Positions 2,335 to 59,632 are shown, numbered from the stretch's first letter. The stretch: DNA of 64,000 nucleotides from Thermodesulfobacteriota bacterium (GCA_965116635.1 OZ220710.1:325638-389637), one strand, 5' to 3'. Notes: generated from the sequence alone by a model not told the origin. Translations and numbers: made by a program.

Positions 2335-2351
<17 letters not shown>
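543..2351 (+). CDS. nucleobase:cation symporter-2 (xanthine/uracil permease) family transporter with a soluble C-terminal extension of about 150 aa
   Basis: 602-aa ORF with many hydrophobic segments and NCS2-like stretches (GSSGAFIAV, NTAYTTAVSVAELTGVA). The hydrophilic tail starts near FEDFTFRNGWGKT. The true start may be ATG 561. The 3' end overlaps the PKS start by 17 nt. Confidence 0.75.
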
Positions 2352-12609
<10,258 letters not shown>

Positions 12610-17811: not shown

Positions 17812-18798
17812 CTAGTTTACGTTATCGAATACGGGCCCGTCGGGATAGAAGGCGACGAAGCGGTCGTTGAGGATCGGATTGTACAGGAGTTGCCGCAGCT
17901 TCCGCCCCTGGAGGGGACCCTCCACGGCTTCCCCGCGCAGCCACGACCACAGGCTTCCCGTCTCCTTGTCGCGCAACAGCACGTTGCCTTGCGCATCCTT
18001 CCGGTCCGATTGCGCGAACGTCAGCACGCGGTCGTCGAGCTCCCGGCGCCAGGCCGTCGCCGTGGTATCGCCGGGCGAGTAGTACACCACGACCTTCGCC
18101 CCGTTGAACTCGTCGTTCACAACGTTCTGTCGCTCGAGCACGTTGTAGGGATAGAGCTTGCCCTTGAGTTTGACCACCACGGCGAGCCCAAGGATGTCAC
18201 TCTGGAAGGGGCCGACGTAGGTCCCCATGAACCCGCCGCGCCGGTACCCCGGCAGCACCTGGGTAAAGGGATAGTTCTTCTTCCAGTTGGCCCAGCTCGT
18301 GACCGTGGACGGCATGAACTCCAGCCGCTTCCCCTTGAGCGGCCCGTGCGCCGCCTCCCCGGTTACGTGGACCCAAAGCGATTCCGTCTGCCGGTCGTAC
18401 ATGATGAACGATTGCTCGTAGAGAATACCCGCGTGCCCGAAGCTCAGGATCTGGTCGTCGAGTTTGCGTCTATACACGATAGACGTCTGGCACAGCGGTC
18501 ACCAGGAGACGGCGATGGGCACCCCTCCGATGGTGTCGTTGCCGAGCTCGTGGACCCCCATGATGGTAATGGGGTAGGCCTTGGCCTCGCCGTTGTGGGC
18601 CACGCCGATGATCACGTCCCGGTCGAAGATGACGTCCTGCTTCTCCGCCTCCGCGGCGCTCAGCATCTTGGGGTCGTCGAAGACCGGGAACGCGTCCCGC
18701 GGCACCGCCTGGAAGCCGAGCGGCTGAGCCGCGGCGGTAGCCGCCAGCGCTGTGAGCAACGCGGCCGTCATCCACGCCGTCGCTGATTTTCGGAGCAT
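17812..18798 (-). CDS. DUF3179-family protein, candidate selenoprotein (in-frame TGA at 18499-18501 read as Sec)
   Basis: Track ORFs 18499..18798 and 17812..18477 are in the same frame, separated only by one TGA. Joined, they read ...GGVPIAVSW-TGA-PLCQTSIVYRRKLDDQILSFGHAGILYEQSFIMYDRQTESLW..., matching the DUF3179 core (AVTYCPLCGSGIVF...LLYxSNLLMYDRETESLW). The TGA sits exactly on the first Cys of CPLC. An N-terminal signal peptide is present. Confidence 0.75.
18467..18485 (-). promoter_or_regulatory. SECIS-like hairpin downstream of the DUF3179 in-frame UGA
   Basis: mRNA reads UGA-N13-CGUCUAU-CGUGU-AUAGACG: a perfect 7-bp stem with a 5-nt G/U-containing loop starting about 21 nt after the UGA. 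Confidence 0.5.
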
Positions 18799-18845
18799 GT
18801 TTTCACCTCGTTTCCTTTGCGTCGTTTTCCGGCCACGGCCAATGG

Positions 18846-18909: not shown

Positions 18910-19641
18910 TTACTTCCGGTGGAATCCGAGGACCTCTCCGGTGATGTAGTCGCTGTCGCTGGACGCGAAGAAGACGAACGCGGGGGCCACGGTCTCGGCA
19001 GGAGCCGGGTTGGGCCGGACGTCGGGAATCCCCTCGATCCCGCGGAACTCGGCGATGGCGTCGGTCATGCGCGTGTCGGCTATCGGCGAGATGCAGTTGA
19101 CCTGGATGTTGTGGGGCTTCATTTCGTTGGCGACGTTGAAGGTCAGGGTTATAATGCCGCCCTTGGCGGCGGCGTAGTCGGACACGCCGTTGGACGGCCG
19201 CAGCGCCGCCGGGCCGGTGAGGTTGATGATCTTGCCCGAACGTTGCCGCTTCATGACGGGCAGCACGGCCTGCATGCCGTTGAAGGTGCCCTTGAGGTGG
19301 ACCCTCATGGTCTCGTCCCATTGCTCTTCGGTGATGTCCTCGAACCGCTTGAGGGTGAGGACGCCGGCGTTGTTGACGAGTATGTCGATGCGGCCCCAGC
19401 GTTCCTCCACCTCCCGCACCAGCGTGTCTACTTCCGTCCGCCGGCCGACGTCCACCAGCCGCGCGATGCTTTCGGCGCCCAGGGCCGAGAGCTCGTCCTG
19501 GACCGAGTCGAGGGCGGCCTGGTCCCGCACCCCGGCGACGGCCAGGATGGCGCCCTCCCGGGCGAAGGCCAGCGCCACCGCCCGGCCGATGCCGCGACTG
19601 GCGCCGGTGATGATGGCCACCCTTCCTTCAAGCCTGCCCAT
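18910..19641 (-). CDS. SDR-family oxidoreductase (3-oxoacyl-ACP-reductase-like)
   Basis: VAIITGASRGIGRAVA (TGxxxGxG), NNAG, SDYAAAKGG (YxxxK). Start taken at MGRLEG. Confidence 0.9.
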   Translation of the reverse strand: MGRLEGRVAIITGASRGIGRAVALAFAREGAILAVAGVRDQAALDSVQDELSALGAESIARLVDVGRRTEVDTLVREVEERWGRIDILVNNAGVLTLKRFEDITEEQWDETMRVHLKGTFNGMQAVLPVMKRQRSGKIINLTGPAALRPSNGVSDYAAAKGGIITLTFNVANEMKPHNIQVNCISPIADTRMTDAIAEFRGIEGIPDVRPNPAPAETVAPAFVFFASSDSDYITGEVLGFHRK

Positions 19642-21007
19642 GCGTGTGCCCACCTCTTGCCGCCAGTTCGTTCACCGTCTGCGCCAGTCTTTGGCACAGC
19701 TCCGGCAGGTCGGCGCTCTCGACGCTGCAGAAAGCGATCCGTAGCCCGTTCATGTTGTCGCCGTCGAACGGCACGGTGCCGATGCCGTGCTCGTCGAGGA
19801 GGTGGTTGGCGACGTCCGTCGCCCGGAGCCTCGACTCGGGCCGCAGGGTGATGAAGCAGAAGAAGCCGCCCTGAAACGGTTCGACGGTAACGAGATCCGT
19901 ATCCATCCTGCCGAGCTCGTCCTTCAGGGTCCGGTACCGCTGCTTCAGGAGTTCGAAAGTCCGGTGCCGTTCCACCACCAGCCGCTCCATCTGCTCCATG
20001 GCCTTGGTGGCCACCGATTGGGCCACCGTCGAGTTGTTGGAGAACAGGCCGCGGTTGACTCCGGCGAACTTGTTGTCGATCTCCGAGGCCAGGGTCCCGG
20101 CGTCGTCGCCGGACCGCCACTCGTCGGGACAGGCCAGCGTGATGGTGCCGGCCCGGGCGCCGTACCAGAGGAGCTCCTTGGTCACGCCGTCCAGTTTCAC
20201 CGGCAGAAGGTTCGGCCTTGGCCGGCACAGGTAGAACAGCGACGACTGCATGGCGTCGGGGTCGTAGACGTAGCTCTCGTAGGCATCGTCGAACAGCAGC
20301 ACCAGCCGCTTCGGAGTGTCCTCCGCGAGTCGATCCAGCGACTCCGCCAGCCGCCGGCCGGCCGCCGCGGACGGACAGAACCCGGTGGGGTTGTTGGGGA
20401 AGTTGAGCAGCACCACGGCGGTGTCCTGTTCGAGCCACACCCGTCGGATGGCCGAGACGATCCCGGCCACGTTGAGGTCGCCGCCGTCGAACAGCGGGAA
20501 GTCGGCGAGGCGAATGCCCAGGTTCTTTCCCAGCACGTGGTCGTAGTTCTCCCAGCGCCGGTCGGCCGTGATGATGGCGCGGCCCGGGTCCACGAACATC
20601 CGCGCGGCGATGCTGATGGCGGCGGTGATGCCCGGGGTGAGGATCGGCGGATGCAGCTGCCGTTCGAGCCGTCCGGATTCGTCGCCCGCCCGCGCCAGGA
20701 TCCACTTCCTCCAGGCCGAGCGGAAGGCGGGTGTGCCCGTCTCCGGCGTGTACGGAAAGATATCCTCGGTATCAAGCCCGTTGAAGAAGGAATGGATCAG
20801 CGGCGCGCAAAGCGTGATCTCGCGCTCGCCACCGTCGGGGTACACCGCGCTTTCCGGTCCCCGGGCCGAGCCGATGGTGGCGTTGATGCGAGCCTTGGCC
20901 TTGGCCTTGCGGGTCCAGTAAAGGATCCCCTGAGGGTTGTGGATCGTTTTCCCGTAGTCGGAGAAAAACGCCATGGCTCCGGTGCGGGTCAGTGCGGGAA
21001 AGTCCAT
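19628..21007 (-). CDS. PLP-dependent aminotransferase, class I/II fold
   Basis: LLNFPNNPTG, LLFDDAYESY, KLDGVTKELLWYGARAG (candidate PLP-Lys). Start at MDFPAL (alternative 20974). Overlaps the SDR start by 14 nt. Confidence 0.8.
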   Translation of the reverse strand: MDFPALTRTGAMAFFSDYGKTIHNPQGILYWTRKAKAKARINATIGSARGPESAVYPDGGEREITLCAPLIHSFFNGLDTEDIFPYTPETGTPAFRSAWRKWILARAGDESGRLERQLHPPILTPGITAAISIAARMFVDPGRAIITADRRWENYDHVLGKNLGIRLADFPLFDGGDLNVAGIVSAIRRVWLEQDTAVVLLNFPNNPTGFCPSAAAGRRLAESLDRLAEDTPKRLVLLFDDAYESYVYDPDAMQSSLFYLCRPRPNLLPVKLDGVTKELLWYGARAGTITLACPDEWRSGDDAGTLASEIDNKFAGVNRGLFSNNSTVAQSVATKAMEQMERLVVERHRTFELLKQRYRTLKDELGRMDTDLVTVEPFQGGFFCFITLRPESRLRATDVANHLLDEHGIGTVPFDGDNMNGLRIAFCSVESADLPELCQRLAQTVNELAARGGHTHGQA

Positions 21008-21420
21008 TGGCTGCCTCGGCTCCAGTCTGTTATCGGTGGCTCTTTTCGGGCGGGTTTGAAACTGATGATTCGCCCAGGAACAATCAACACATGGTCGCCA
21101 CGGTGCCTGCGGGTGGCTTGGTGGCGATTCAAGTGTACCCATACGACCAAACCCGCATGGTCCGGCACCTGTGCCGCCGAATTGGATACAATATAGCACA
21201 TGCGGCAGGCACCGGTCATGTCTGTCCCGGATCCGTCCAACACGCGTGTGGTGCGTCAGAATGTTTGGAGTCGGAAAAGAAAGCGGGATGATGCGGGATT
21301 TGGCGGGTTGAAACGGGATACGCGTTTATTATCACGCACTTAACCGCCGGGCGGGGCGGTGACCAGGGTTATTGGCCGACTCCCCAGAACGACATACTGT
21401 TGGAGTCAAAAAGGGCTTCT

Positions 21421-21444
21421 GATTCCCCATGCGATTCCCCATGC
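21421..21444. repeat. tandem 12-mer GATTCCCCATGC x2
   Basis: Exact direct repeat, immediately 5' of the two DnaA-box-like 9-mers. Confidence 0.85.
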
Positions 21445-21452
21445 CCGAAAAG

Positions 21453-21486
21453 TTATCCACAGCTTCGCGAGACAAAGTTATCCACA
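21453..21486 (+). promoter_or_regulatory. two exact DnaA-box consensus 9-mers (TTATCCACA) in direct orientation, 25 bp apart
   Basis: AAGTTATCCACA at 21450-21461 and 21475-21486, in the non-coding gap between the aminotransferase and the tail module. Confidence 0.35.
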
Positions 21487-21504
21487 GGTAAAAAGTACGG
21501 TCCG

Positions 21505-21750
21505 TCAGCCGCCTCGGCCTGGTCGTTTAGCGGTTCCAGCGATCACGCGCCAGCCGAGATAGGTGACGACCTTCCGCAGCTTTAGCTCTCTCAGCTCGGG
21601 GAACTCCAACCAGAACCGCCGGACAAGCGACCGCCTGGCGCGGGCGTTGTAGGCCTCGTATTCATCAGCCAGCACCGCAATAACCGTTGCGATCTCCCGG
21701 ACCGATACCGGCGCCAGGTCGCTAACGAGCTGCTGGGCGCTCTCGACCAA
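21505..21750 (-). CDS. hypothetical small protein (81 aa, TTG start)
   Basis: The only plausible ORF in the gap. No recognisable motif, and the start codon is weak. Confidence 0.3.
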   Translation of the reverse strand: MVESAQQLVSDLAPVSVREIATVIAVLADEYEAYNARARRSLVRRFWLEFPELRELKLRKVVTYLGWRVIAGTAKRPGRGG

Positions 21751-21856
21751 AGCTCCCGTTGACGGGAGTTCAGGCGCTCCGGATTGCCATCACGGCCGAG
21801 GTGCAGGACCCGGCCGGCGCGTGGCCGCCGATCACGATCGACGGGGAGGTGCCGGC

Positions 21857-22249
21857 ATGACCTTCAAGCTGGTGCTTCCCGAGACGATCGATGTGACGGC
21901 CGACGTGCATCCGCCCGATGGGAGCGGGGCCGAGGCGGGCCAGATCAAGCTCAAGCTGCGCTATCTCTCCCTCCCGGAGCGCCGCGAGCTCATCGCGGAG
22001 CTCCAGTCGTCCACCGACGAAAAGACGACAGACGCCGGGTTGGCGGCGCGGCTGGTGGTGGGGTGGGATGGCCTCCAAGACGAGGACGGCGAGCCTATCC
22101 CCTGGGGCGCATCGTCGCTCGCGTCGGCCATGGAGATCCCGTACTTCCACGACGCCGTCCGGAACGCGATCGCCGAGCATCTATACGGGGCACGGGCAAA
22201 AAACTTCTTCGCGCCGGACGGGAATGGGCCGCCGGCGCTTCCGGAATAG
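21857..22249 (+). CDS. phage tail assembly chaperone (lambda gpG-like)
   Basis: GGGGAGG RBS then ATG 21857; 130 aa, acidic. Lies directly upstream of the tape-measure gene and carries a slippery site near its 3' end. Confidence 0.65.
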   Translation: MTFKLVLPETIDVTADVHPPDGSGAEAGQIKLKLRYLSLPERRELIAELQSSTDEKTTDAGLAARLVVGWDGLQDEDGEPIPWGASSLASAMEIPYFHDAVRNAIAEHLYGARAKNFFAPDGNGPPALPE

Positions 22250-22479
22250 AGCTGTGGGAAGACGAACGCGACGTCGTCGCCGCGTGGGCGTGCCTGAGCC
22301 GCTGCTGGCGCCTCAATGGTCCCGCCATGGGGCCGGCGGTCCCGGAGATAGACTGGGCTCAGGCGCGGGCACTGCTGGATCTGGCGGGGATGCTGCCGCT
22401 CGACAGCGAGACGTTCATGGGAGTGCTGTGGATGGAAGAGGGGGCGACGGAGGTTTTCCGCCAGGCTACGTCCCACTGA
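21857..22479 (+). CDS. tail assembly chaperone G-T fusion via programmed -1 frameshift (21857..22204 joined to 22204..22479)
   Basis: The -1 frame is open from the slip site to 22479 and reads ...KKLLRAGREWAAGASGIELWEDERDVVAAWACLSRCW...EGATEVFRQATSH. Confidence 0.55.
22198..22238 (+). promoter_or_regulatory. -1 ribosomal frameshift signal: A_AAA_AAC heptamer, 6-nt spacer, GC-rich hairpin
   Basis: In the zero frame GCA AAA AAC gives an X_XXY_YYZ site at 22198-22204. Spacer TTCTTC follows. Stem GCGCCGG (22211-22217) pairs with CCGGCGC (22232-22238). Confidence 0.6.
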
Positions 22480-22531
22480 CTATGCACGAAGTTGGCGGGC
22501 GGTCCAATCGGCGGGATGCCCGTCGCGGCGG

Positions 22532-22750
22532 CTAGAACGGTTCGTCGCGCTCGGTGGGAGCCTTTCGCATCGCGTACGAGGCGAGCGCGAAGTATAGCAT
22601 GGCCGGCACCGTGAAAATGATTACCAGCAACAACCCGGCGCCGTTCGATGTGGTGATCGTGACCACCATCGCCAGCGCGGCCCCGCCAGCGAATACAAGA
22701 CCTGCCAGGATGCAGGCCCAGCCCGACACGATGCGCAGACAATCAAGCAT
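22532..22750 (-). CDS. small hydrophobic protein (72 aa, about 2 TM), opposite orientation inside the tail module
   Basis: MLDCLRIVSGWACILAGLVFAGGAALAMVVTITTSNGAGLLLVIIFTVPAMLYFALASYAM... Fills the gap between the chaperone and the tape measure. Confidence 0.4.
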   Translation of the reverse strand: MLDCLRIVSGWACILAGLVFAGGAALAMVVTITTSNGAGLLLVIIFTVPAMLYFALASYAMRKAPTERDEPF

Positions 22751-22785
22751 GCCGGAAAGTCTATTCGCTCTTCCGGGGGCGGTCA

Positions 22786-25034
22786 ATGGGTGAGCTGCTA
22801 CTCCGCGCCCGGTTGCTTCTTACCGGCGCCGGCCAGTTCGTGCGCGGCATGGGGCCGGTTATCGCGCGGATCGGCGCGCTCGTCGTTGCGGTGCGCGGGC
22901 TGCAGGCCGCCGGCCGCACCGTCGTACGGGTGTTCCGCGGCGTCATCGAAGCCACCACGCGCCAGGAGGCGGCCGAATCCCAGATCGCGGCGCGGATCCG
23001 CTCCACCGGCAACGCGGCGGGCTACGGCGCCGATGAACTGCGGCGCATGGCCAGCGCCCTCCAGGATGTGACCACATACGGAGACGAGGCCACCCTGGAG
23101 ATGCAGGCGCTCCTGCTCTCCTTCACCAATATCAGGGGTGACAATTTCCGGGACGCGACCGAGGGCGTGCTCGATCTGGCCACCGGCATCGGCACGGATC
23201 TCCCCTCAGCGGCGATCCAGCTCGGCAAGGCGTTGAACGACCCTGCGCGCGGCCTGGACGCGCTCAGCCGGTCCGGCACCACATTTACCAAATCCCAGCG
23301 CGAGACGATCAAGCAGATGGCCGAAGGCGGCCGTGTCGCCGAAGCCCAGCGTCTGATCCTGCGCGAGCTCGCCCTGCAGTACGGCGGATCGGCGCGCGCG
23401 GCGCGGGACACGTTCGGCGGTGCTCTCACGGCGCTCAGGAACGCCGCCGGAGATCTCCTGGAGGGCCGCGGCGGGCTCAACGAGGCGAAGGACGGCATTG
23501 AATCGCTTACCCGGGTGCTGTCGTCGCCCGAGGTGCGGGACGGTGCGCAGGCCCTGGTCGGGGTGATGACCGAACTGGTTGGCCTGGCCGCCAAGCTGGC
23601 CGCCGTCGGCGTGCCGCCCGTGCTGGCCGCCATCCGAAGTTTCGGCGTCGGCGACGCGGCGGCGAGAGAGCGGCGACGTCGCCAGACAAACGATCTCGGG
23701 GTGCGATACGAGCGTCTGCTGCAAGAGCGCGAGGCATCGGCGAGCCGGACTCGCGGGTCCGTGGCCTGGAGGGCCGGCCGCGGGAGGCCCGGCGGGTCGA
23801 AGGCCTCGTGCGGGATCTCCTGGAAGGTCCGCTCGGCCAGAATACGCGCGTGGCGGCGGAACGGGAGCTCGACCTCACGCTCACGCGGATCCGAACCGTC
23901 GGCGGCCAACTCGAAGACGCACGCCGCGAAGCGGCCGCGCGCCAGGGTCCGGAGATCGCGCGCATAGACCGCGAGTTGGCCCAGATCGAGCAACAGATTT
24001 TCGACATCACCGCGGTGGACGCCGACAAGATCGAACCGTCGCGCGCAGCCAAACCCACGGCCACCGAGCCCACGCCCGGGCCGACGCCTACGCCCAGGCC
24101 GACGCCCGCCGCCGATCGCGCCGTCCGCGCCGCGCTGGAAACCGCCGAGCGCTACAACGAAGCGATCCGGGACATCGCCGCCGGGGAGGCTGCGCTGCTG
24201 CCGGCGCTGGAGCGGAATCTGCGGGCCATCGATGACAATTTGGCGCGCCGCCTGGCGCTTTCGGAGGGGTCGGAGGAGCTTCAGCAGCGGGCGATCGAGC
24301 TGTGGGAGGAGGAGACCGAGGCCGCGATCGCCGCGGCGGCGGCGGTCGAAAGCCTGGGCGACGCTTCGGAGGATGCCGGCGCCCGCACCCTGGCAAGCTG
24401 GGATCAGGCATCCGCGGGGCTGCGGTCGGTCCAGGAGGTCGCCGAGGAGACGATTTCCGGCATGGACCGAGCGCTGACGGATTTCGTGTTCGGCGGCAAG
24501 ACGAGCTTCAGCGACCTGATCAATCACATGATCCGCGAGTTCGCGCGGCTGCTGGTGTTTCAGCCCGCGCTCGACAGCCTCGCGGGCTTCATCGGCGGTC
24601 TTTTTGGCGGCGGCGGCCGCGGGTTCCGCGGCCCCGGAGGCCTTCTGCCGACGGGGCCGAGTGGGTATCCGTCGCTCCATGGGGGCGGTATCGCCGGTCA
24701 GCTCGGCGGCGTCCGTCGCCGCGTGGCGCCGGAGATCTTCGCCGCGGCGCCGCGCCTTCACGGCGGCGGCATCGCCGGCGACGAAGTGCCCACCCTGCTC
24801 CGCAAGGGCGAGGGTGTTTTCACTCCGGAGCAGATGCAGGCGCTCGGAGGCATGGCGGCGCCGAGGATCGAGATCCGGTTCGAGAACCGCGGCACGCCGC
24901 AGCGGGAGGTGTCGCGCGACGTGCCGTTGGACGGCCGCGGGATCGTGATCGGCCTTTTGGTGGACGATCTGGAGCGTCGAGGTCCGGTTTCGCGCGGGCT
25001 CGAGTCGCGCTACGGCCTGCGGCCTCGGGCGTGA
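22786..25034 (+). pseudogene. phage tail tape measure protein, interrupted by a frameshift near 23730-23745
   Basis: The N-terminal part (frame of 22786) has a TMP core-like region (DEATLEMQALLLSFTNI, LPSAAIQLGKALNDPARGLDALSRSGTTF), then degenerates into Arg-rich nonsense. The coherent sequence continues in the frame of 23808 (EPDSRVRGLEGR...FSDLINHMIREFARLLVFQ...HGGGIAG). Confidence 0.75.
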
Positions 25035-25038
25035 TGAG

Positions 25039-25371
25039 ATGGATTGGCCGTCCTACGCACTCATTGTCGCAGGCGCCGGCGCCGAGCGCGGCGCACGGTC
25101 GGTCGAGCGCCCGCAATTCGACGACGGTATGGTGGCACAACGCCGGCGTTGGACGCGGGCGCTCAAGCGCATCGAGGTCCGGTTCATCCTTGTCGATGCC
25201 GACAAGTCTCGGTTCGAGGAATGGGCGGCGAGCTCGCACGCCTGGTTTGACTGGCGAGACGAGACTCGGGCGCGGGTGCTGGGGGGCCAGGGAGGCATAG
25301 AATACAGAGAGCGGGCGGTTGCCGGCGTCCTCACGTGGGACGGGCGGTGCGAGCTCGAAGTGATCGCGTAA
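25039..25371 (+). CDS. minor tail protein, lambda gpM-like (110 aa)
   Basis: Size and position (first gene after the TMP). Pattern F-DG..Q.R.W....I.V.F......F..W.....FDW resembles the gpM family. Confidence 0.5.
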   Translation: MDWPSYALIVAGAGAERGARSVERPQFDDGMVAQRRRWTRALKRIEVRFILVDADKSRFEEWAASSHAWFDWRDETRARVLGGQGGIEYRERAVAGVLTWDGRCELEVIA

Positions 25372-25396
25372 AAACAACCGACGAAAGGGGTGAAAA

Positions 25397-25756
25397 ATGG
25401 CTTTTACTGACCTCGGAAAACAGGTGGTGATGGAAGAAGGACTCGACGGGGCGAGCCGGTATATCTCGCTTCACCTGGCCGACGGCACGGAGCTCGCCGG
25501 GCACGGCTACAGCCGCGCCGAAATCACGCCGGCGCAGATGGCTGTCTCGGGAACTGGCGTGTTGACCGGACCGATCAACCACCCCATCTACACAGCGACC
25601 GACGGCGACGCACAACAAGCGATGAAGGTAGGCCTGTACCGGACCCAGGCCTCAATCCGTAGAATCTCAGATGGCTACTCAAGTCATCACTCTCCTCGAC
25701 GCCTGGCGGATAGGAGACTCGTGGGACGTTCCAGAGGGCTCCCGGCCCGAGATTGA
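25397..25756 (+). CDS. hypothetical phage protein (3' end uncertain)
   Basis: The N-terminal 85 aa look coding (MAFTDLGKQVVMEEGLDGASRYISLHLADGTEL...). The last 30 aa are Arg/Ser-rich and overlap the next gene by 86 nt. Confidence 0.4.
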   Translation: MAFTDLGKQVVMEEGLDGASRYISLHLADGTELAGHGYSRAEITPAQMAVSGTGVLTGPINHPIYTATDGDAQQAMKVGLYRTQASIRRISDGYSSHHSPRRLADRRLVGRSRGLPARD

Positions 25757-26741
25757 CGACGCCCTCGTGGTCGAAGACGACACCTGCTTACGGCTCTTCA
25801 CGATTTGGGAAAATAGGTTCCAGGTCAATTTGGACCCACAGAACGCTACCGCGGTCAACCGCGACTTCACCGCTCGAATGGAGTCTCAAGGGCGGATTGA
25901 TTTGATCAGGGGAGACGTGCGGGCCTCGGTATATTTGGGGAATCATCGCGACGACCGCGAGCCCTACGTATTCACAGACGTAGTCTTCTCCCCGGAAGTG
26001 GTGGCCCACTTCCAGGGAGAGGGAGCACCAATAACACTGACATTCTCGGACGACCCATCGGCCGTCCTCGACGCCGGTCTGGCCGGGTCCATCGCCGGTA
26101 CCGCCGATCTTCTCAATCCTCTGGACGCCTCGGCCACCCTCGACGCCGGTCTGGCCGGGTCCATCGCCGGTACCGCCGACCTCCTCAGTCCACTGGACGC
26201 CTCCGCGACCCTGAGCGCCGGTTTGGCCGGTTCCATAGCCGGCGCCGCCACTCTCGGGGCGGCGATCGCACCGCCGGCTCCGCCCCCCACCGAATCGGGC
26301 TACGAGATCCACCGCCGCGCGTCCGCGCCGCGCGATGTGCTGCTTACGGCCATTGAACTGAACCATCCGCTTCTGCCCACCCCCGCGCGCGCGATACGCG
26401 ACACCGCGTCGCACACCATCGAGGGAAACGAGTACGCTCCGGTGTATTTCGAGGTGAAATGGGCCGACCAGGTCGAAGGCGAGAGTCCGCGTGTGGAGGT
26501 GGTGGTGGACAACGTGGGCGAAGCGCTCACTCAATGGGTCGATATCTCACGCGGCGGCCGCGGTGCGACCATGCGGCTCATGCACGTGCTTAACGACGTG
26601 GTGCAGTGGGATCAGACGGTCGACGTGATCCGCGCGCGGACCGCGGACGTGGTGCGCATCGAGCTGGGATGGGACATCCTGTTGGACGGCCCGGCGGTGA
26701 CCTGGCGTTACGACATGGACACGGCGCCGGGACTGTTCTGA
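25671..26741 (+). CDS. minor tail protein with C-terminal DUF1833/gpL-like domain and internal 24-aa tandem repeats
   Basis: The C-terminal ~170 aa (LLTAIELNHPLL...YAPVYFEVKWADQVEGESPRVEVVVDNVGEAL...TWRYDMDTAPGLF) fit the DUF1833 pattern. Lies between the gpM-like and NlpC/P60 genes. Confidence 0.6.
   Translation: MATQVITLLDAWRIGDSWDVPEGSRPEIDDALVVEDDTCLRLFTIWENRFQVNLDPQNATAVNRDFTARMESQGRIDLIRGDVRASVYLGNHRDDREPYVFTDVVFSPEVVAHFQGEGAPITLTFSDDPSAVLDAGLAGSIAGTADLLNPLDASATLDAGLAGSIAGTADLLSPLDASATLSAGLAGSIAGAATLGAAIAPPAPPPTESGYEIHRRASAPRDVLLTAIELNHPLLPTPARAIRDTASHTIEGNEYAPVYFEVKWADQVEGESPRVEVVVDNVGEALTQWVDISRGGRGATMRLMHVLNDVVQWDQTVDVIRARTADVVRIELGWDILLDGPAVTWRYDMDTAPGLF
26067..26246 (+). repeat. 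in-frame 72-bp tandem repeat, about 2.5 copies (LDAGLAGSIAGTADLL[N/S]PLDASAT)
   Basis: Units at 26067-26138 and 26139-26210 are near-identical. A partial third unit starts at 26211. Confidence 0.9.
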
Positions 26742-26748
26742 CAATGAT

Positions 26749-27126
26749 GTGGGCCGAGAAATAGTGCTGGACGCGTCGGCATCCTGGACCGACTGCGGCG
26801 CCTTCGTTGCGGAGGTCCTCCGCAGGGAGTTCGGTCTGCGAGTCGACCTCCCGCCGGCCGCCGAGTCGCCCAGCTCCCGCGACCGGCAGATAGGCGCCCT
26901 GGTGCGCGAGTTGGCGAGGCCGACCGCGACGCCGACGGACGGCGACGGCGTATTGATGCGGCTTGTCGGACGGCGCGGAACGGTGGGCCACCACATCGGC
27001 CTGTGGGCGTCGCCAGGCTACGTGCTGCACTATTTGCCGCGCGGTCCGGGCGGCGTGCGGCTGCAGGATCTCGCCGGAATGCGGCCTGTCTACCAGGTCG
27101 AGGGGTTCTACCAGTGGCTCGCGTGA
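26749..27126 (+). CDS. NlpC/P60-family peptidase, lambda gpK-like tail protein
   Basis: 125 aa with GTG start. WTDCGAFV (catalytic Cys context) and GHHIGLW (His). Conserved position before the host-specificity gene. Confidence 0.7.
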   Translation: MGREIVLDASASWTDCGAFVAEVLRREFGLRVDLPPAAESPSSRDRQIGALVRELARPTATPTDGDGVLMRLVGRRGTVGHHIGLWASPGYVLHYLPRGPGGVRLQDLAGMRPVYQVEGFYQWLA

Positions 27127-30084
27127 CGCTGGACCACTGGCCGCACCCGCTCACCGCGGACGGCCGCGAGATCCGCGAAGTCGACGTGTCTGAGGCTCTG
27201 GCCCTGATTGGACGGCGCGCCGATGTGCACGTAATCGTCGACGGCCACATGGCGCCCGGATCAGATGTGGCTCTCCGGGGGGGCGAAATTGTCACGGTCC
27301 GCCCCAGGCTCGCGGGCGATGACAGCAACCCTATCGCCACGATTCTCCAAATCGGCCTGGTGATCGCCGGCGCCTACATCGGCGGCCTGGGCGGCTTTGG
27401 GGCGCAGTTGCTGGCGGCGGCCGTCGTCATCGTCGGCGGTCTGGTCATAAATGCGCTTTTTCCGCCGCGGGAACCCGAACTGCCGGGCGACCAGGAGCGG
27501 CGCGAGGTCTACTCGCTGCGCGGCGGCTCCAACGCGGCCCGGCACTACGATCCTCTCCGGCTCGTGATGGGCACCCATCGCATCTTTCCGGACCTGGGCG
27601 CGGAGCCGTACACCGAATATGAGGAAGATGACGAAGGCGTTGTACAGCAATACCTGTATCAAATCCTGCACTGCGGCGTCGGCGATCTGGATTTGGAAGA
27701 GGCCAGCTATGCCGGCACGCCGCTTTCGAGTTACGACGAGGTTGTCCTGGTCAGTTCCGACGCAGACGGCCGGATTGCTCTGCAGGGCCTGTTCAGCGAC
27801 GTATCCACGGCCGACGGCGCGGACCTTGCCGATGCCGAGTGGGTTGAACGCACTACCGAGGACGGCACCGACCGGATCGCGATCGATCTTATCGGGCACC
27901 TTTACCGCGTGACTAATCGAGGCGGCGTCGTCCAGAACACCGTCGACATCGAGGCCGGGTACCGACTGGCGGACGGCTCGCTCGGGGAACATTTCACGCC
28001 GCTGGCAGTCCCGCAGTTCGCTCACGGCAGCTCCGAGATCTATCGCCGCACCTTTCGCTACACCCTGCCCGCGGCCGGCCGCTACGTGGTCCGCGTGCGT
28101 CGGACCACGGTGCCGTCCGAAAATCAGCGGGTGCGCGACAATATCTCTTGGACGGCCCTCCGGTCCTACCGGCCGGACAGTACGGACTACAGCGGACAGA
28201 CGCGCCTTGGGCTGCGCGTGCGCGCCAGCGGCCAGGTCCGCGGCGCCATGGACAAGATCGCGCTGGTGGCGCACCAGCGCATCCCGGTATGGGACGGTGC
28301 TGCATGGACACCGGGCCGCAGCTCGAACCCGGCCTGGTTAGCCCGCTGGTTTGCGTTGGGCCTCTACCACGATGGCCGCCTGGTGGCCGGGATGGGTTTG
28401 CCGGCGGAACGCATCGATGAGGACGTGCTCGTTGCCTGGGGAGCGTGGTGCGACCTGAACCGCCTGCAGTGCAACTTCGACCTCCACGGCCCCGCCACTC
28501 GCCGCGAAGTCATGGAGATCATCTGCAAGGCCGGCCGCGCGACGATTTCGTGGCACACCGGCAAGTTCGGCGTCATCTGGGACGCCCCGCGGCCGGTGAG
28601 CGGGCTTATCACACCGGGCAACGTATTGGCGGGTTCGATGCGAGTCGACTGGGCTGCCGGCCCGCGTGCCGAGGAGGTCGTCTGCCGCTACATCGATCCC
28701 GACAGGGACTGGCAGTGGACGCCGGTTCGTCGCACCATGCCCGGCGTCGCCAGCACCCCGGTCCGAAGCGTGACGCAGACGCTGCGCGGCGTGACGTCCC
28801 GGCGGCAGGCCATTGAGGAGTGCGCCCTCCAGGCTGCCCGCCAGGCGTATTTCGACCGAGAGATCTCCTGGCGGATGAGCCTCGAGGGTTTCGCTCTGAC
28901 GCGGGGGTCCGTGCTCGGCGTGGCCCACAGCTTGGTGGGCGGCGGGACGGCCGGACGGGGTGTGACGGTGGCGGGCGCGTCCGCCGAGATTAGGTGGCGC
29001 GGCCCGGGCGACGCGCCGCGGATGACGGGCGGCGACTGGCTCGAAATAAGGTATCCTGACGGCTCATTCGTGGCGCGTCGACTGGCGCTGGCCAACACGG
29101 CGGACGGTGTGATCACGGTCACCGTGGCGGACCCCTGGCCGGAGATGGATGGCGAGCCCATCGACGCGCTGTGGCGGCACTACGCGGCCAACGGCGCTCC
29201 GGTAAACGTCCGCATTGCTGCGATTCGGCCGGTCTCGGAGTCAGAGGTCGAGGTCGCGGCCATTGACGACGTTCCGGAATATTACGCAGCGGCCAGCGCG
29301 GCCGAAGACCAGCCCTTGCCCGACATTCGGTCCGTAGATTCACGTATTCCCCGAGTCGTTCGCGGGATCGTGTCTGAACGCCGCATCGCCGCGGGCGACG
29401 TCCAGGTAGTCGAGCTCGAGCTGTTGCTGGTGGTCGCAGGCGACTGGCGCGGCGGTGTCGTGCGCGCGGCCGTGGGGGACGGCGCGCCGGCGGTGGTGGC
29501 GGTGCTGGTCGACGGCGACACCGCTGCGCACTGGATCGGCCCTCAGTCCGGCCGGATCACCATCACGGTGGTGCCGGGTACCGCTGCGGCGCCGGCGGGC
29601 CCCGTGTGGACTATAGAATACACCATCGGGGGGCTGCTGTTGCCACCGCCACCGCCTACCGACCTGGCCGTCGTCGCCCTGGGGCTCAACCGCGGCTATT
29701 CCTGGGTTCCGCCGGACGTGCAGGACCTGCTCGGCGTGTTGATCCGGTACGCCACCGCCGAGGGTAGAGCTTCGCGCCGGCGCGGATGCGGCGACGAGTG
29801 TGCTTGTAGGCAGCGTGCTGACGGTTTTCACCGCGACATCGGCCGGCACGGACGATGCGGTTGTCACAGTGGCGCCGGCGACCCCGGCCGGGATCTCGCG
29901 GAGGACGCTTAGCGTCGCCCAGACGCCGCTCGGCGTTCAGCGGCGGCTATATATCTACATGACTGTCGATTTCGGTGTTCCTGTCTGGAAGGCCCATATT
30001 CCGGCGGCGGGGAACCAGGACATATCGGAAGAGATGCGGGTGACGGCGCGCCTGCGCGTCGAAGAAGCGGAGCCCTTCGCATGA
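27123..30084 (+). pseudogene. gpI-like / host-specificity protein J-like fusion, with a frameshift near 29757-29790
   Basis: GTG 27123 overlaps the gpK-like stop (GTGA). The N-terminus resembles lambda gpI (ubiquitin-like segment, then the hydrophobic IATILQIGLVIAGAYIGGLGGFGAQLLAAAVVIVGG). It is followed by a long J-like body. After IRYATAEG the frame becomes Arg/Cys/Gly nonsense, while the +1 frame stays coding to 30084 (VELRAGADAATSVLVGSVLTVFTATSAG...). Confidence 0.7.
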
Positions 30085-30581
30085 GTATAGCAGTGGCGCT
30101 CAGCGGCGGTTTGGATTCGACAGCTTTGCTTTACCGGGAAGCTGTAACGACAGATACGGAGCTGGTCGCGATCCACATCACGCGTAAGGTCGAAGATCCT
30201 TTTCGTGCCCACGCGGCGGCGGCGTGGATCAATAGACATATCCGGTCGATCACGCTTGTGGAGGAGCCCGGGAAAGAGTCCGAGGGTGGGTCGCCTCGCA
30301 CGGTGTACGCCGCCCTGGCTCGCGCAGTAGCTTCCAGGGGGGCAATTACCCGCCTTCTGCATGGCAGGTCCGCCTGGAACGTGGGCACCGGCCGTGGCCT
30401 CCTCGAAGGCACGGTTTCTCTGCGCGATTTCTACGCGCAGCACACCGGCGTCCCCATGGAATACCCCTATTTTGAGCCCGTCCCTCGGGGTCGTTTCGAG
30501 ATTGAGGCGACGCTGCCCGCGGCCCTCCACGCGCTTGTGGCGCGGTGCGGCCGACATTCTGACGCGCTACAACGCGCTTAA
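30081..30581 (+). CDS. short PP-loop (SGGxDS) ATP-pyrophosphatase-like protein, QueC/ExsB-like N-terminus
   Basis: MSIAVALSGGLDSTALLY... Only 166 aa, with no C-terminal Cys cluster. Its ATG overlaps the preceding stop (ATGA). Confidence 0.45.
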   Translation: MSIAVALSGGLDSTALLYREAVTTDTELVAIHITRKVEDPFRAHAAAAWINRHIRSITLVEEPGKESEGGSPRTVYAALARAVASRGAITRLLHGRSAWNVGTGRGLLEGTVSLRDFYAQHTGVPMEYPYFEPVPRGRFEIEATLPAALHALVARCGRHSDALQRA

Positions 30582-30675: not shown

Positions 30676-32961
30676 TCATGGTTTGTCGCGGTCAAGGGCC
30701 ATCACAAGGGGTGGAAGAAGCAGGAAATCCGCCAAGAAGGCCAGAACGATCGTCATGGATATCAGCACCCCCATGGACCAACTGCTCTCGAAGCCCGACA
30801 GCGTGAACACCAGGAACCCCAACGACAAGACCGCGGTGGTCGTCGCCAACGCTTGACCGACCGTGCGGAAGACCGCTCGGATCGCCTCCCGGACGGAGAC
30901 TCCCTCCCGGCGCAGTTTCAGGTAGTGGGTGAGGAAATGGATCGTGTCGTCAACGATGATCCCGAAGGCGATCGCCGTCACCACCGAAGCCGCCAAGCCG
31001 ACGTTGCCGATCAGGTGACCCCACAAACCGAAGCTCATCGCGGGGGGGATGAAGTTCGGTACGAGAGCGATCAGACCGATCCGGATGCTCTTGAAGACCC
31101 AGATCAGGATGAACGATATGATCGCCATCGCGGTGAGCGTGCCCCACAGCATGCTGTGGATGTTCCTTTGGGAGAGGTGCGCGAAGACGATGCTGAGGCC
31201 GGTTGCGTCGGTGGCGAGTCCCGGAGCGTTGTCCGCGAGCCAGGCCCTGGCGCGTGCGTTCAACCCGCGTTGCTCCCGGGACGATGAGTCGCGCAGCACC
31301 ACGGTCATGCGCGTAGCCGTCTTCGCCACGTCGATGCGGTCGTTCAGGTCGCCGCCGAAGGGGAGCGAGAGCTCGTAGAGCAACAAATACTGGGCTGCAA
31401 GCTTCGGATCGTCAGGCAGCCGATGGAATGACGGGGCATCGCCGTGCATGTTCCTGTTCAACCGTTTCATGATGTCCGTGAATGCCTGAACGTGCATCAC
31501 TTCCGGCTGGCTCCGGAACCATTCCGCAAAGGAATCTACCTTTCGCAGATACTCCGGATCGGTGATTCCGCCCTCGCGTCCCGCCTTGAGCGAGTATTCC
31601 AACCGGTCCAGGCCCGTCAGGTTCTCGATGACGAAGTCCGTGTCGCGGCGAAACTCGTAGCGATCATCGAAATACCGCGTCCAGTTGTCGCCCAGCTCAT
31701 TCCGGGGAATGCCGAGAACGAGAATCACGGTCGCCAGGGAGACAAACCAGAGCAGGAATCGGCGGCGCGCCACAACGAACACGCCGAAGCGGTCGAAAAG
31801 GGAGACTCGCCCGGAATGGACCCGGGAGGCACGCAACGGAAGGATGGAGAGCAGAGCCGGGAGCAGGGTCACGGAGAAAAGGAAAGTGCAGAACGCGCCG
31901 AATGCCACCATATTGCCCAGAACGTGGAACGACGGCGACTCCGCAAAGTTCAGGCTGAGGAAGCCGATGGACGTGGTGAACATGGTGAGAAACACGGGAT
32001 AGACGTTGCCGGCAAGGGACTTCGCGATGGCGTCGTTTCTTGCCAGACCCTCGGTCATGCCCGACAGGGTGGTCGTGACGATGTGGATCGAGTAGGCGAC
32101 GGCGAACGTCATCACGATAATTGGCATGCTGCCGCTGACGGGCGTGAGCACCGTGCCCACCCAGCCGGCGAAGCCCGCCGTCGAGGCCAGGACGAACGCG
32201 AGCAGGACTGCGATTGCGCACGTGCCCAGGAGCGAACGGAGAAGAAGGGCGGTGGCCGCGAGAATCACCAGGAACACCACGGGTATCAACGTCTCGACAT
32301 CGTCCTGCGTAGCCTGGGCAAAGGCGCGGTTCATCACAACGTTGCCCGTCAGGAAATAGGCAATATCCGGGTGCCGTGCCCGGGCCTCGTCGAGTATTGT
32401 GTTGAGGGAATCGGTGATCTCGACCCACGCCACCTCCGGATTCTCCGGCAGGACGAAACTGATCGCCACGCCGCCTACGCGGGCGTCATGAGACACCAGG
32501 CGGCCGGACAGTTCGACCTCGTTCAGCGCGGTTCGCCTGACTCGCTCCAAGTCCGCATCGTTCAGCGACCTCGCGTCTTCGACCAGAGGCTCGACGATCA
32601 GGTCGTCGCCCTCCGCCCGGCTGTGGGAATAGTTGGTCAGGGAGTCCACCCGGTTCGAACGGGGCACGCGCCACGCGGCTTCAGTCAATTCCTCGATGGC
32701 GCCCAAGGCCTCCCGGGTGAAGACCCCGCCGCTACGGGGCGCAACGGCAACCAGCGCCGCGTTGGATGCGGCGTAGGTATTCTCCAGGGCGTCGAATGCA
32801 AGGAGGTGGGGATCGTCGGGACTGAACAGCGTGCGATAGTCGCTGGTGACCACGAGAAAGCGCGCACCCGATGCCATGGCCAGCATGGCCAGCGACGCGA
32901 GGAAGATGACCCACCACCGATGCCGCAGGATGGCTGCGTTATAGCGTTCCAGATTCAACAA
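30676..32961 (-). CDS. MMPL/RND-superfamily transporter (HpnN-like lipid exporter type), 761 aa
   Basis: Two blocks of about 6 TM segments alternating with two large soluble loops. N-terminus RHRWWVIFLASLAMLAMASG..SDYRTLFSPDDP. C-terminal block GIIVDDTIHFLTHY. Confidence 0.85.
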   Translation of the reverse strand: MLNLERYNAAILRHRWWVIFLASLAMLAMASGARFLVVTSDYRTLFSPDDPHLLAFDALENTYAASNAALVAVAPRSGGVFTREALGAIEELTEAAWRVPRSNRVDSLTNYSHSRAEGDDLIVEPLVEDARSLNDADLERVRRTALNEVELSGRLVSHDARVGGVAISFVLPENPEVAWVEITDSLNTILDEARARHPDIAYFLTGNVVMNRAFAQATQDDVETLIPVVFLVILAATALLLRSLLGTCAIAVLLAFVLASTAGFAGWVGTVLTPVSGSMPIIVMTFAVAYSIHIVTTTLSGMTEGLARNDAIAKSLAGNVYPVFLTMFTTSIGFLSLNFAESPSFHVLGNMVAFGAFCTFLFSVTLLPALLSILPLRASRVHSGRVSLFDRFGVFVVARRRFLLWFVSLATVILVLGIPRNELGDNWTRYFDDRYEFRRDTDFVIENLTGLDRLEYSLKAGREGGITDPEYLRKVDSFAEWFRSQPEVMHVQAFTDIMKRLNRNMHGDAPSFHRLPDDPKLAAQYLLLYELSLPFGGDLNDRIDVAKTATRMTVVLRDSSSREQRGLNARARAWLADNAPGLATDATGLSIVFAHLSQRNIHSMLWGTLTAMAIISFILIWVFKSIRIGLIALVPNFIPPAMSFGLWGHLIGNVGLAASVVTAIAFGIIVDDTIHFLTHYLKLRREGVSVREAIRAVFRTVGQALATTTAVLSLGFLVFTLSGFESSWSMGVLISMTIVLAFLADFLLLPPLVMALDRDKP

Positions 32962-36110: not shown

Positions 36111-37280
36111 ATGGATTTCGAGCTTCCCGAAGAGATACAAATCATCAAGAAAACCATGCGCGATTTCGTGGACCGGGAGCTGATCCCGCTGGAGCGGGAG
36201 TTCGTGCCCGAGGGCGAGGAGATGCCCGAGGAGCTCTACAAGCCGCTTCAGGAAAAGGCCCGGGCCCTGGGGTTCTGGATGCTGGACGTGCCCGAGGAGT
36301 ACGGCGGCGCCGGGCTCGACCTGCTCACGCGCTGCGTGATCCAGGAAGAAGTCTCCCGCACCAATTGCATCCCCTTCCGCAACAACCCGATCTTCGGCCC
36401 GGAGGCCCGCGGCATCCTTTTCGAGCTCAATGACGAGCAGAAGGAACGCTATCTCTACCCCGTGCTCCGGGGCGAGAAGACCGCCTGCTTCGCCCAGACC
36501 GAGCCCGACGCCGGCGGCGATCCCGCGGGCATGAAGACCCGGGCGGTGCTGGACGGCGACCACTGGGTGTTGAACGGCACCAAGCGGTTCATCAGCAACG
36601 CGGGCTTCTCCGACTTCGCCCAGGTCATGGCGGTCACCGACCCCGAGAAACGCGCCCGGGGCGGCATCACCACCTTCCTGGTGGACATGGACACCCCCGG
36701 CGTGACCATCGAGCGCCGCTGGCCTACCATGATGGGCGACGCGCCGTTCCAGATCCTCTTCGAGAACGCCCGGGTGCCGGCGGGCAACGTCGCGGGCGAG
36801 GTGGGGCAGGGCTTCAGGCTGGCCCAGGGTTGGCTCCAGGAGGGTCGCGTCAAGGGCCACGGCGCCCGCTGCATCGGCATCGCCGAGCGCGCCCTGGACA
36901 TGATGATGGACTACTCGCAGATCCGCACCACCTTCGGCCAGCCCCTGTCTGAACGGCAGGCCGTGCAGTTCATGGTTGCCGACTCGGTCATGGAGCTGCA
37001 CATGGCGCGTAACCTGGTCTACGAATGCGCCTGGCGCCATGACCGCGGCGAGGACGTGCGCAACCTGGCGTACATGGTCAAGTGTGTATGCACGGAGATG
37101 GCCAGCCGGGTGGTGGACCGCTCCATCCAGGTCCACGGCGGCATCGGACTGACCAAGGAGCTGCCGCTGGAGTGGTGGTACCGCCAGTTGCGCAGCATCC
37201 GCATCACCGAGGGCGCCACCGAGGTGTTGCGCTGGCGCATGGCCCAGAACTTGCTGCGCGCCCGCGCCAAGAACAGGTAA
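36111..37280 (+). CDS. acyl-CoA dehydrogenase
   Basis: AGGAGG RBS; 389 aa. FAQTEPDAGGDPAGM, WVLNGTKRFISNAG, C-terminal IRITEGATEV (catalytic Glu region). Confidence 0.93.
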   Translation: MDFELPEEIQIIKKTMRDFVDRELIPLEREFVPEGEEMPEELYKPLQEKARALGFWMLDVPEEYGGAGLDLLTRCVIQEEVSRTNCIPFRNNPIFGPEARGILFELNDEQKERYLYPVLRGEKTACFAQTEPDAGGDPAGMKTRAVLDGDHWVLNGTKRFISNAGFSDFAQVMAVTDPEKRARGGITTFLVDMDTPGVTIERRWPTMMGDAPFQILFENARVPAGNVAGEVGQGFRLAQGWLQEGRVKGHGARCIGIAERALDMMMDYSQIRTTFGQPLSERQAVQFMVADSVMELHMARNLVYECAWRHDRGEDVRNLAYMVKCVCTEMASRVVDRSIQVHGGIGLTKELPLEWWYRQLRSIRITEGATEVLRWRMAQNLLRARAKNR

Positions 37281-46436: not shown

Positions 46437-46880
46437 TTATGCGCTCGGCTTGAACTTCGGCAGCGTGTACTCGTCGTGGTCTTCGAACACCACCTCCACC
46501 GCCATCCCCACCTTCACCTCGTCCGGCGGGATGTCGACGACGTTGCTCACCAGCCGCGGCCCCTCGTCGAGGTCGATGAGCGAGACGTTGTAGGGGATCT
46601 GGTCCTGGTACGCCGGATGCCACGCACGGTGGTAGGTGACGAAGGAGTAGATGGTGCCCTTGCCGCTCACCGAAACCCATTCGTTGTCCGGCGAGAGGCA
46701 CTTGGCGCAGAGCGCCTGGGGCGGGAAGCTGAAGTACGCCTGGCACGCGTTGCAGCGCTGTACCGTGAGCTTGTGCTCCTTCAGGTTGTCCCAGAAGGGC
46801 TTGGCCTCCATCTCCGCGAGAAAAGGTTCGTTGCGTGGCGCGGCGCGCCCGCGCTTGTCGTGGGCCTCGGTCTTGCTCAT
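46437..46880 (-). CDS. DUF35 Zn-ribbon / OB-fold protein
   Basis: Start at MSKTEAH, overlapping the thiolase stop (ATGA). CNACQAYFSFPPQALCAKC zinc ribbon, then an OB-fold (GTIYSFV...VSLIDLDEG). Confidence 0.85.
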   Translation of the reverse strand: MSKTEAHDKRGRAAPRNEPFLAEMEAKPFWDNLKEHKLTVQRCNACQAYFSFPPQALCAKCLSPDNEWVSVSGKGTIYSFVTYHRAWHPAYQDQIPYNVSLIDLDEGPRLVSNVVDIPPDEVKVGMAVEVVFEDHDEYTLPKFKPSA

Positions 46881-48031: not shown

Positions 48032-48113
48032 GACTGTGCTCCTTGTTCCCAACGGGTGCCGGCCATATGCCGGAACCCGCCGGGATCGGTCATAAGCTCT
48101 TGATCGAACGGTC

Positions 48114-49157: not shown

Positions 49158-49203
49158 GTTGGGTCTCCCTCCTGTTGCTCCAATCCGATTTCCATGAGAC
49201 CGA

Positions 49204-50244: not shown

Positions 50245-50444
50245 GATGGTTCTCCTTTTTGGGGTAAAGAGCCCTCTCGTGATTCGCACCGGGGTACGAT
50301 AGACCAGTCAGCAGGCCTTTTCAACAACGGGATCGGGGGGAGAATCCGCACCGCGGGACGGACGGATCCGGGTATTGCCGTCTGCTTGTCCAACGTTCCC
50401 GCCCGTGATTCTATCAAGCTGTACTACGATTCTCGGGAGGCGCA

Positions 50445-51584: not shown

Positions 51585-51711
51585 GCGAGAGCGTCCCGGA
51601 GCGGCAGTCCGGGAGGCTCGGTTGAACACGGTTCCTGATTGGAGTAATTTCCGGTAGCCTCTCCTGGAGGGGAAACCGGGTGTTGTGCGGTGCTGCTAGA
51701 GGAGGCATTCG

Positions 51712-52833: not shown

Positions 52834-52877
52834 GGGGCTGAACCGGCCGCGGAATGAATAGCTGTGGAACCATTCCC

Positions 52878-52924: not shown

Positions 52925-52949
52925 CGGTCACCCTGGACATGTCGAACCC

Positions 52950-59125: not shown

Positions 59126-59632
59126 ATGAATCAAACCGTTGGTGAGAAGTTTCCGGATCTGGCGCTCAAGGACCAGACCGGCCAGGAGGCGGCATTGTCG
59201 GGGATCACCGAGGGCAAGTTCCCCCTCATCGTGGTGTTCTATCGCGGCTACTGGTGAGGGAAGTGCGTGGTGCAGTTGCGCCACCTGGTCACCCTGCAGG
59301 AGGAGCTTCCCTCGGCCTATTGCCGTGTCGCGGTCGTCAGCGTCGACCCGCCGCAAGTCAACGGGGCGCTTAGAAACGGCCTCGGGGCGACGTTCCCGTT
59401 CCTGAGCGACCATGAGCACAAGGCCATCGAGGCCCTGGACCTGGTCGACACCTCTGACAAAAAGCACGGGACCATCGCGATTCCATACGCCTTCTCGCTG
59501 CTGCCCGATCTCACGGTCCACCGCATCTACAACGGCTGGTACTACGTGGGCCGGCCCACCAACGAAGAGTTGCGGGCCGATATGCGGGCGATGATCCAGC
59601 AGTGCCGGGGAGACTACGATACGCAGGCGTGA
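59126..59632 (+). CDS. peroxiredoxin/redoxin-like (AhpC/TSA fold) protein, candidate selenoprotein (in-frame TGA at 59255-59257 read as Sec)
   Basis: GGGAGG RBS, then ATG 59126. Reads MNQTVGEKFPDLALKDQTGQEAALSGITEGKFPLIVVFYRGYW-TGA-GKCVVQLRHLVTLQEEL..., in frame with track ORF 59267..59632. The FYRGxWCxxCxxQL motif of this family places the TGA on the first Cys of CxxC. Confidence 0.7.
59267..59284 (+). promoter_or_regulatory. SECIS-like hairpin downstream of the peroxiredoxin-like in-frame UGA
   Basis: UGA-N9-GUGGUGC-AGUU-GCGCCAC: a 7-bp stem (one G-U pair) with a 4-nt loop containing GU, starting about 17 nt after the UGA. Confidence 0.5.

Follow-up and report, generated by a model that had tools for sequence, protein, structure and literature searches.

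The tables of two reviews (PMC9312934, 2022; PMC13188914, 2026) list DUF3179 (PF11376), with the motif UxxC/T, as a prokaryotic selenoprotein family in which U stands for selenocysteine (Sec), and the reviews give MBW1804167.1 and MDJ0986319.1 as example accessions. Both reviews refer this selenoprotein to Zhang and Gladyshev 2007 (PMC1976440), where new families were introduced under provisional names; the equivalence to DUF3179 rests on the reviews' tables. According to the legend of Fig. 2 in PMC13188914, the model of the bacterial selenocysteine insertion sequence (bSECIS) has a loop of 3–9 nt, a stem of 4–16 bp, a G in the first two loop positions, a distance of 16–37 nt from the UGA to the loop, and a minimum free energy of −7.5 kcal/mol or lower. 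We followed up a locus in a 64,000-nt stretch of DNA (hereafter the window) from a Thermodesulfobacteriota bacterium (GCA_965116635.1 OZ220710.1:325638-389637), in which an earlier note, made from the sequence alone, had proposed a DUF3179 gene with an in-frame UGA as a candidate new selenoprotein. The best explanation of this locus, to which we assign a probability of about 0.88, is a single gene for a 328-residue exported DUF3179 protein whose codon 100, UGA, would be decoded as Sec via a bacterial SECIS. The gene is a correct rediscovery of a known selenoprotein family whose selenoprotein status is already published, and the claim of novelty falls with the entries in PMC9312934 and PMC13188914. 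Judged from the reviews' tables, our gene shares with the known family the Pfam domain, a single Sec, the placement of Sec first in UxxC, and Cys homologues at the same column; nothing essential differs, and the present copy comes from a Candidatus Binatia genome.

The complete gene occupies positions 17812..18798 on the minus strand and comprises 328 codons, including one Sec-UGA, plus a TAG stop, as supported by its sequence and translation, the PF11376 match, and the ratio of nonsynonymous to synonymous substitution rates (dN/dS). It starts at an ATG (18798-18796) with a Shine-Dalgarno (SD)-like GAGGTG (18804-18809) 5 nt upstream, runs for 99 codons up to a TGA (18499-18501), and continues downstream of it in the unchanged frame for 228 codons to the TAG (17812-17814). 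The two same-frame open reading frames (ORFs) split by a single TGA, as described in the earlier note, were thus found to the base, and translation returned the proposed read-through ...IAVSW-U-PLCQTSIVY... within ...GGVPIAVSW-U-PLCQTSIVYRRKL... The protein would contain one Sec residue (residue 100; 18499..18501, minus strand), which lies in the UxxC motif U100-P-L-C103 (18490..18501, minus strand), the Sec form of the family's W-C-P-L-C according to the translation and the alignment of homologues. A Sec-type (general secretory) signal peptide, MLRKSATAWMTAALLTALAATAAA, is predicted at residues 1-24 (18727..18798, minus strand), read from the translation with the cleavage site before QP placed by eye. 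In the AlphaFold model, residues 6-21 of this region are helical and lead into a linker of lower confidence.

Both halves of the gene belong to one DUF3179 domain, as had been proposed. The read-through product matches PF11376 with E = 1.1e-70 and 238.8 bits (gathering cut-off 27) in two stretches that cover the domain, and DUF3179 was the only Pfam family found on it; NCBIfam holds no model for this protein. Because the match of the N-terminal part alone spans profile positions 1-64 and that of the C-terminal part begins at position 66, the TGA corresponds to column 65 of one continuous domain, with the profile running across it. The suggestion that the recoding is local and the genetic code of the organism unchanged is supported by the ordinary use of TGA elsewhere: it ends about half of the ORFs with a high GC content at third codon positions (GC3) in the window. 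The enoyl-CoA hydratase gene (55439-56260) illustrates this use: its product matches profile positions 1-250 of 251 with residues 21-272 of 273, directly before its TGA.

The TGA is a conserved feature of the gene. Two scans of contigs from one genome per species, the alignment-based one using a pattern from a 9-sequence alignment (an 18-sequence alignment was too diverse for a pattern), yielded 52 distinct loci, and TGA stands at the W-*-PLC column in 52/52 of them at protein identities of 38–93%. These loci represent at least six lineages and come from Binatia, metagenome-assembled genomes (MAGs) labelled Thermodesulfobacteriota, SAR324, Entotheonella, Rokuibacteriota, Planctomycetota, and Pseudomonadota. 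The closest relatives of the gene are found on complete chromosomes labelled Candidatus Binatia (83–93% protein identity). The same TGA occurs in two contigs that are 98–99% identical to the window, and the N-terminal ORF is also present on the 5,335,205-bp circular contig ctg17348_29x_c (ENA ERZ25069711; 98–99% identity, with 98% across the aligned stretch). Across 22 species-level Binatia sequences, dN/dS is 0.12 in the 70 codons that precede the TGA and 0.14 in the 225 codons that follow it. Between the TGA and GTG 18477, the earliest codon at which translation could restart, these 22 genomes encode an invariant P-L-C-Q-T-S-I, with synonymous variation in the codons for P, L, and Q. Since P, L, and C are unchanged as amino acids while P and L vary in codon choice, the stretch immediately after the UGA is translated. 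Several MAGs contain two or three Sec-containing DUF3179 paralogues (L006/L010; L055/L058; L063/L065; L052/L060/L061; L024-L026), and MAGs of Binatia and Thermodesulfobacteriota also contain a second, divergent clade of Sec forms (43–44% identity; loop CGUGC or GGUGC; stem CGGCUGU/ACAGCCG). Judging from these sequences, Sec in DUF3179 appears to predate the paralogue duplications.

The recoded position is a Cys column in the wider family. HMMER, run exhaustively against 1.84 billion representatives, returned 8,910 DUF3179 family members at E ≤ 0.001, and 132 of the best 150 representatives cover the recoded column in their best-scoring stretch. Among these 132 full-length representatives, the column holds Cys in 120 (91%) and Ser in 9; a CxxC motif is present in 111, with CPLC as its commonest form. 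Alignment with PF11376 members, proposed in the earlier note as a check, therefore gave Cys where the UGA stands, and the proposed search for both kinds of homologue returned the 52 TGA loci, MAGs included, next to Cys forms, of which the closest full-length ones (42–43% identity) read WCPLCQT and WCALCQT. The remaining 18 of the best 150 representatives are fragments that start shortly past the column, which is consistent with further Sec forms. Taken with the conservation of the TGA across phyla, the selection on both of its sides, and the covarying hairpin described below, the Cys column upholds the assignment of Sec to the first Cys of CPLC.

A perfect 7-bp hairpin with a G/U loop, beginning 13 nt after the UGA, was present where it had been reported (18467..18485, minus strand). 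It consists of the stem CGUCUAU/AUAGACG and the loop CGUGU, with 20 nt from the UGA to the loop. Its geometry falls within the bSECIS limits, having a 5-nt loop, a 7-bp stem, and a G at loop position 2 followed by U. Like bSECIS elements of the Escherichia coli fdhF type, it lies within the coding region just past the UGA and resembles them in loop and stem size, in the GU of the loop, and in spacing. In contrast to the common N1/N2 pattern of bSECIS, the first and last bases of its loop (C and U/C) are unable to pair. The support for the hairpin is comparative; the fold of the single sequence is unexceptional. The seven codons that form it (ACG TCT ATC GTG TAT AGA CGC) show zero synonymous change among the 22 species-level genomes and make up the 8-codon window of the gene with the lowest synonymous variation (mean codon entropy of the gene, 0.61 bits), and three of them, the AT-ending codons TCT, TAT, and AGA, are rare in this gene, whose GC3 is 0.86.

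Covariation was assessed in an alignment of 42 distinct UGA+60 segments with 500 shuffles as the control. Paired hairpin cells amounted to 94.6% (82.3% in shuffles), cells changed on both sides numbered 36 (10.4 in shuffles), and the covariation score was 0.362 (0.133 in shuffles); on each of these measures, all 500 shuffles stayed below the observed value. When the partner strand was slid by 1–3 columns, pairing fell to 17–49%. Changes on both sides affect 4/7 stem pairs in some sequence, and three stem pairs switch Watson-Crick type (UA/GC/CG, UA/CG/GC, and AU/GC). RNAalifold recovered the same helix, and the loop G-U-G is kept in 42/42 sequences within a conserved loop C-G-U-G-U/C.

A second gene in the window shows a similar arrangement. 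A screen of the window for pairs of high-GC3 ORFs that share a frame and are separated by a TGA identified an AhpC/TSA-like gene (59127..59632, plus strand) with an in-frame TGA at 59255-59257, whose read-through product (...VVFYRGYW-U-GKCVVQL...) matches AhpC-TSA at 4e-17; its best, weak NCBIfam match is 'SelL-related redox protein'. A SECIS-like hairpin, GUGGUGC-AGUU-GCGCCAC (59267..59284, plus strand), begins 9 nt after this UGA, with 16 nt to the loop and −10.8 kcal/mol. The TGA is kept in 24/24 Binatia genomes, in many of them on chromosomes that also carry the DUF3179 gene, and the hairpin sequence is unchanged in 23/24 relatives. A distant Saccharimonadales homologue has Cys at the TGA column. 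Both genes thus carry a 7-bp hairpin with a loop starting xGU. Two independent, conserved genes with UGA at a Cys position and a hairpin form the pattern expected of a Sec-decoding organism, and these comparisons suggest that Binatia use selenocysteine.

We infer the following course of expression from the established bacterial mechanism. The hairpin starting 13 nt downstream would act as a bacterial SECIS and recruit SelB-GTP-Sec-tRNA(Sec) to the ribosome when the UGA enters the A site. The product would then carry U-P-L-C where most family members have C-P-L-C, and export by the Sec pathway with cleavage of the signal peptide would yield a mature, two-lobed, almost all-beta protein. Both the dependence on SelB and the incorporation of selenium are predicted from the locus, as is the export.

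Other accounts of the TGA have to be set against this one. A single in-frame stop within a conserved domain resembles a fresh pseudogene, and the TGA might be a recent nonsense mutation or a TGC/TGT miscalled in sequencing or assembly. Its recurrence in 52/52 independent assemblies from several phyla, and again in the two nearly identical contigs, speaks against either origin. Purifying selection (dN/dS about 0.12–0.14 on either side) and protein-level conservation across the TGA, including the codons directly past it, rule out a pseudogene, and the chance of this explanation is negligible. It is also very improbable that the locus consists of two cistrons, a secreted 99-aa N-terminal piece and a 221-aa C-terminal piece starting from GTG 18477, which would assemble into a split DUF3179 protein. 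Public gene calls give exactly these two ORFs; however, the P-L-C-Q-T-S-I stretch between the TGA and the GTG is conserved at the protein level with synonymous changes. The position of the motif's second Cys within this stretch argues strongly against a split gene. Moreover, GTG 18477 sits inside the hairpin loop and lacks a preceding SD-like sequence, the C-terminal piece would have no signal peptide whereas the N-terminal piece has one, and the Cys-form relatives are single polypeptides.

A further alternative is that the UGA is read through without selenocysteine, by a near-cognate Trp or Cys tRNA or a local suppressor, with the hairpin serving only to stimulate pausing or read-through. Several observations lean this way and weigh against Sec decoding. 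The selA, selB, selC (tRNA-Sec), and selD genes are all missing from the 64-kb window, where ARAGORN detected no tRNA and about 40 ORFs gave no Pfam match to SelA, SelB, or SelD; regular expressions for SelA/SelB/SelD motifs matched neither the window nor the Binatia loci. Back-translation of the SelA motif GDKLLGGPQ at high GC content, searched against genome contigs, returned no Binatia among the at least 120 matches listed. The hairpin is also thermodynamically weak, at the edge of the model limit of −7.5 kcal/mol: −5.8 kcal/mol alone, −6.9 kcal/mol with flanks, and −7.6 kcal/mol for the UGA plus 45 nt, the last including weak lower pairs. Its local fold is no better than that of shuffled sequence (z = −0.22), and Rfam gave no match. 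Folding the region, as the earlier note had advised, therefore confirmed the hairpin and its geometry but found its stability marginal. In 12/42 relatives, the fourth stem pair is a C-A mismatch (alignment columns 20 and 32; window 18482 and 18470), a further departure from bSECIS. These relatives are mostly SAR324, Entotheonella, and one Planctomycetota lineage, in which the codon GAC or GAG replaces AGA or GGA. Against read-through without Sec, the recoded column is the Cys column, which is typical of Sec; the hairpin covaries and agrees with bacterial SECIS elements in position, size, and G-U loop; the AhpC/TSA-like gene in the same genome has its UGA in a thioredoxin-fold motif, in place of the Cys, and a similar hairpin; DUF3179 is listed as a selenoprotein family; and many genes of the window end normally at TGA. 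We consider this alternative improbable, with a small share of the likelihood, and retain Sec decoding as the explanation of the locus.

The chemistry of the UxxC motif is a separate matter. Our first choice is a redox-active selenenylsulfide or selenol-thiol pair, which may carry out thiol-disulfide or chalcogen chemistry outside the cytoplasm, and a metal- or metalloid-binding knuckle would be a close second; the assignment between redox and metal roles, which draws on a structural model, is weakly founded. The AlphaFold model, built on 84 family members with X written at the Sec position, has a predicted local distance difference test score (pLDDT) of 93 and a predicted TM-score (pTM) of 0.88, and it is two-lobed and almost all-beta. 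In this model, strands 93-98 and 107-110 form a beta-hairpin whose loop carries UxxC. Thioredoxin-fold selenoproteins with UxxC or CxxC (DsbA-like, Prx-like, and AhpC/TSA-like) are alike in having UxxC for CxxC, an exported or redox context, and a Sec/Cys pair. In contrast, the DUF3179 protein has no thioredoxin fold and no thioredoxin-type Pfam match, and its motif stands in a loop between strands rather than at the N-terminus of a helix, which counts against the redox assignment. Conserved gene neighbourhood or operon logic was not found across Binatia, SAR324, and the 8-Mb contig L218, and this likewise weakens the assignment between redox and metal roles. The neighbours differ by lineage: short-chain dehydrogenase and RodZ-like genes in Binatia, flagellar and sigma-factor genes in SAR324, and rhodanese and luciferase-like genes in L218, where the rhodanese gene (6749-7084) lies directly downstream of the Sec form.

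In a metal role, the U-P-L-C loop would be a knuckle that binds a metal or metalloid on a degenerate Rieske-like beta domain, and Sec would serve as a ligand rather than in a redox-cycling selenenylsulfide. The location of the motif in a beta-hairpin loop would suit such a site, and the only high-probability structural matches were local ones to Rieske and NirD domains. A search of the Protein Data Bank (PDB) by fold gave these matches over about 100 residues, with probabilities up to 0.99, E-values of 0.07–0.4, and target TM-scores of 0.45–0.62. One lobe of the DUF3179 protein is thus locally similar to Rieske/NirD beta domains, and its Cys-Pro-x-Cys loop would fall near the position of the Rieske ligand loop, a placement based on motif order. 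The same source that lists DUF3179 also lists the metal-related selenoproteins MerT-like, CPx-ATPase, and YHS, and one family member fused to an ArsP-type permease (ArsP_1) points in the same direction. However, the fold matches have weak E-values and cover only about 100 residues, and PDB chains gave no sequence match to the DUF3179 protein in single-sequence or profile searches. The protein lacks the Rieske ligand set CxH...CxxH: it has only two conserved Cys, and the family consensus does not retain the His of FGH. In another family member, two DUF3179 domains follow a thioredoxin-like AhpC/TSA domain, a fusion that points to thiol redox chemistry. P0203 and P0252 are the family members with the AhpC/TSA and ArsP_1 fusions. 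We regard the Rieske/NirD similarity of the modelled structure as a lead only and the metal site as possible, though less probable than not. Other fusions in the family involve fn3 and VWA extracellular modules. Searching a viral fold library matched one uncharacterised giant-virus protein, and weak Hedgehog/Hint sequence matches in the PDB at E about 0.1 were dismissed as noise.

A broader proposal would make DUF3179 a functionally new class of exported selenoprotein, in which a U/C-P-L-C loop on a duplicated, degenerate Rieske-like beta domain serves metal(loid) binding or chalcogen transfer rather than thioredoxin-type redox chemistry, and would add Binatia as a Sec-using lineage that the literature searched does not mention. 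We consider this proposal unlikely as a whole. Selenoproteins in Binatia had no mention in the literature that we searched.

Annotation of the family is affected by the recoding. In a large protein database, the best 120 matches to the query were all pieces of about 220 aa that cover only its last two thirds, and a query centred on the TGA also returned N-terminal pieces of about 100 aa. A full-length Sec form was not among the matches listed in two protein searches, which matched 535 and 456 proteins. Public gene calls at Sec-form loci consist of 'DUF3179' ORFs of about 100 aa and about 220 aa (99 aa and 221 aa for the gene described here). Since the matches listed were such pieces, gene callers evidently break the gene at the TGA in every assembly; the Sec form was split into two ORFs in every public assembly examined. 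Gene catalogues consequently undercount selenoproteins in Binatia, SAR324, Entotheonella, Planctomycetota, and Rokuibacteriota. The gene leaves the knowledge of Sec decoding unchanged. Its remaining value lies in this systematic mis-annotation, in Binatia as apparent Sec users, and in the probable active site that it marks: DUF3179 is a large family of unknown function, and the conserved Sec/Cys position is a target for mutagenesis and structure determination.

The window contains several other features. A phage-tail-type segment of about 9.3 kb (21247-30571; tape measure, DUF1833, and GpJ-like tip attachment) is absent from the two contigs that are 98–99% identical to the window (L221, L222); this insertion/deletion polymorphism lies 2.4 kb away from the DUF3179 gene. 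The MMPL gene (window 30676-32961) and the aminotransferase gene (window 19628-21199) are direct neighbours in these contigs and overlap by 5 nt where they meet. At 2335-12609 on the plus strand, the window encodes a 3,424-aa type I polyketide synthase, in which Pfam identified two ketosynthase (KS) and two acyltransferase (AT) stretches together with dehydratase (DH), methyltransferase, enoylreductase (ER), ketoreductase (KR), and acyl carrier protein (ACP) domains. Lipid and acyl-CoA genes are dense at 36111-39690 and 46437-55403, including an acyl-CoA dehydrogenase, three family III CoA-transferases, a citrate synthase, a pair of thiolase-like and ChsH2-type OB-fold genes, and two TctC-type receptors, with the enoyl-CoA hydratase gene just downstream. 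This lipid and acyl-CoA gene set is ordinary for Binatia-like genomes.

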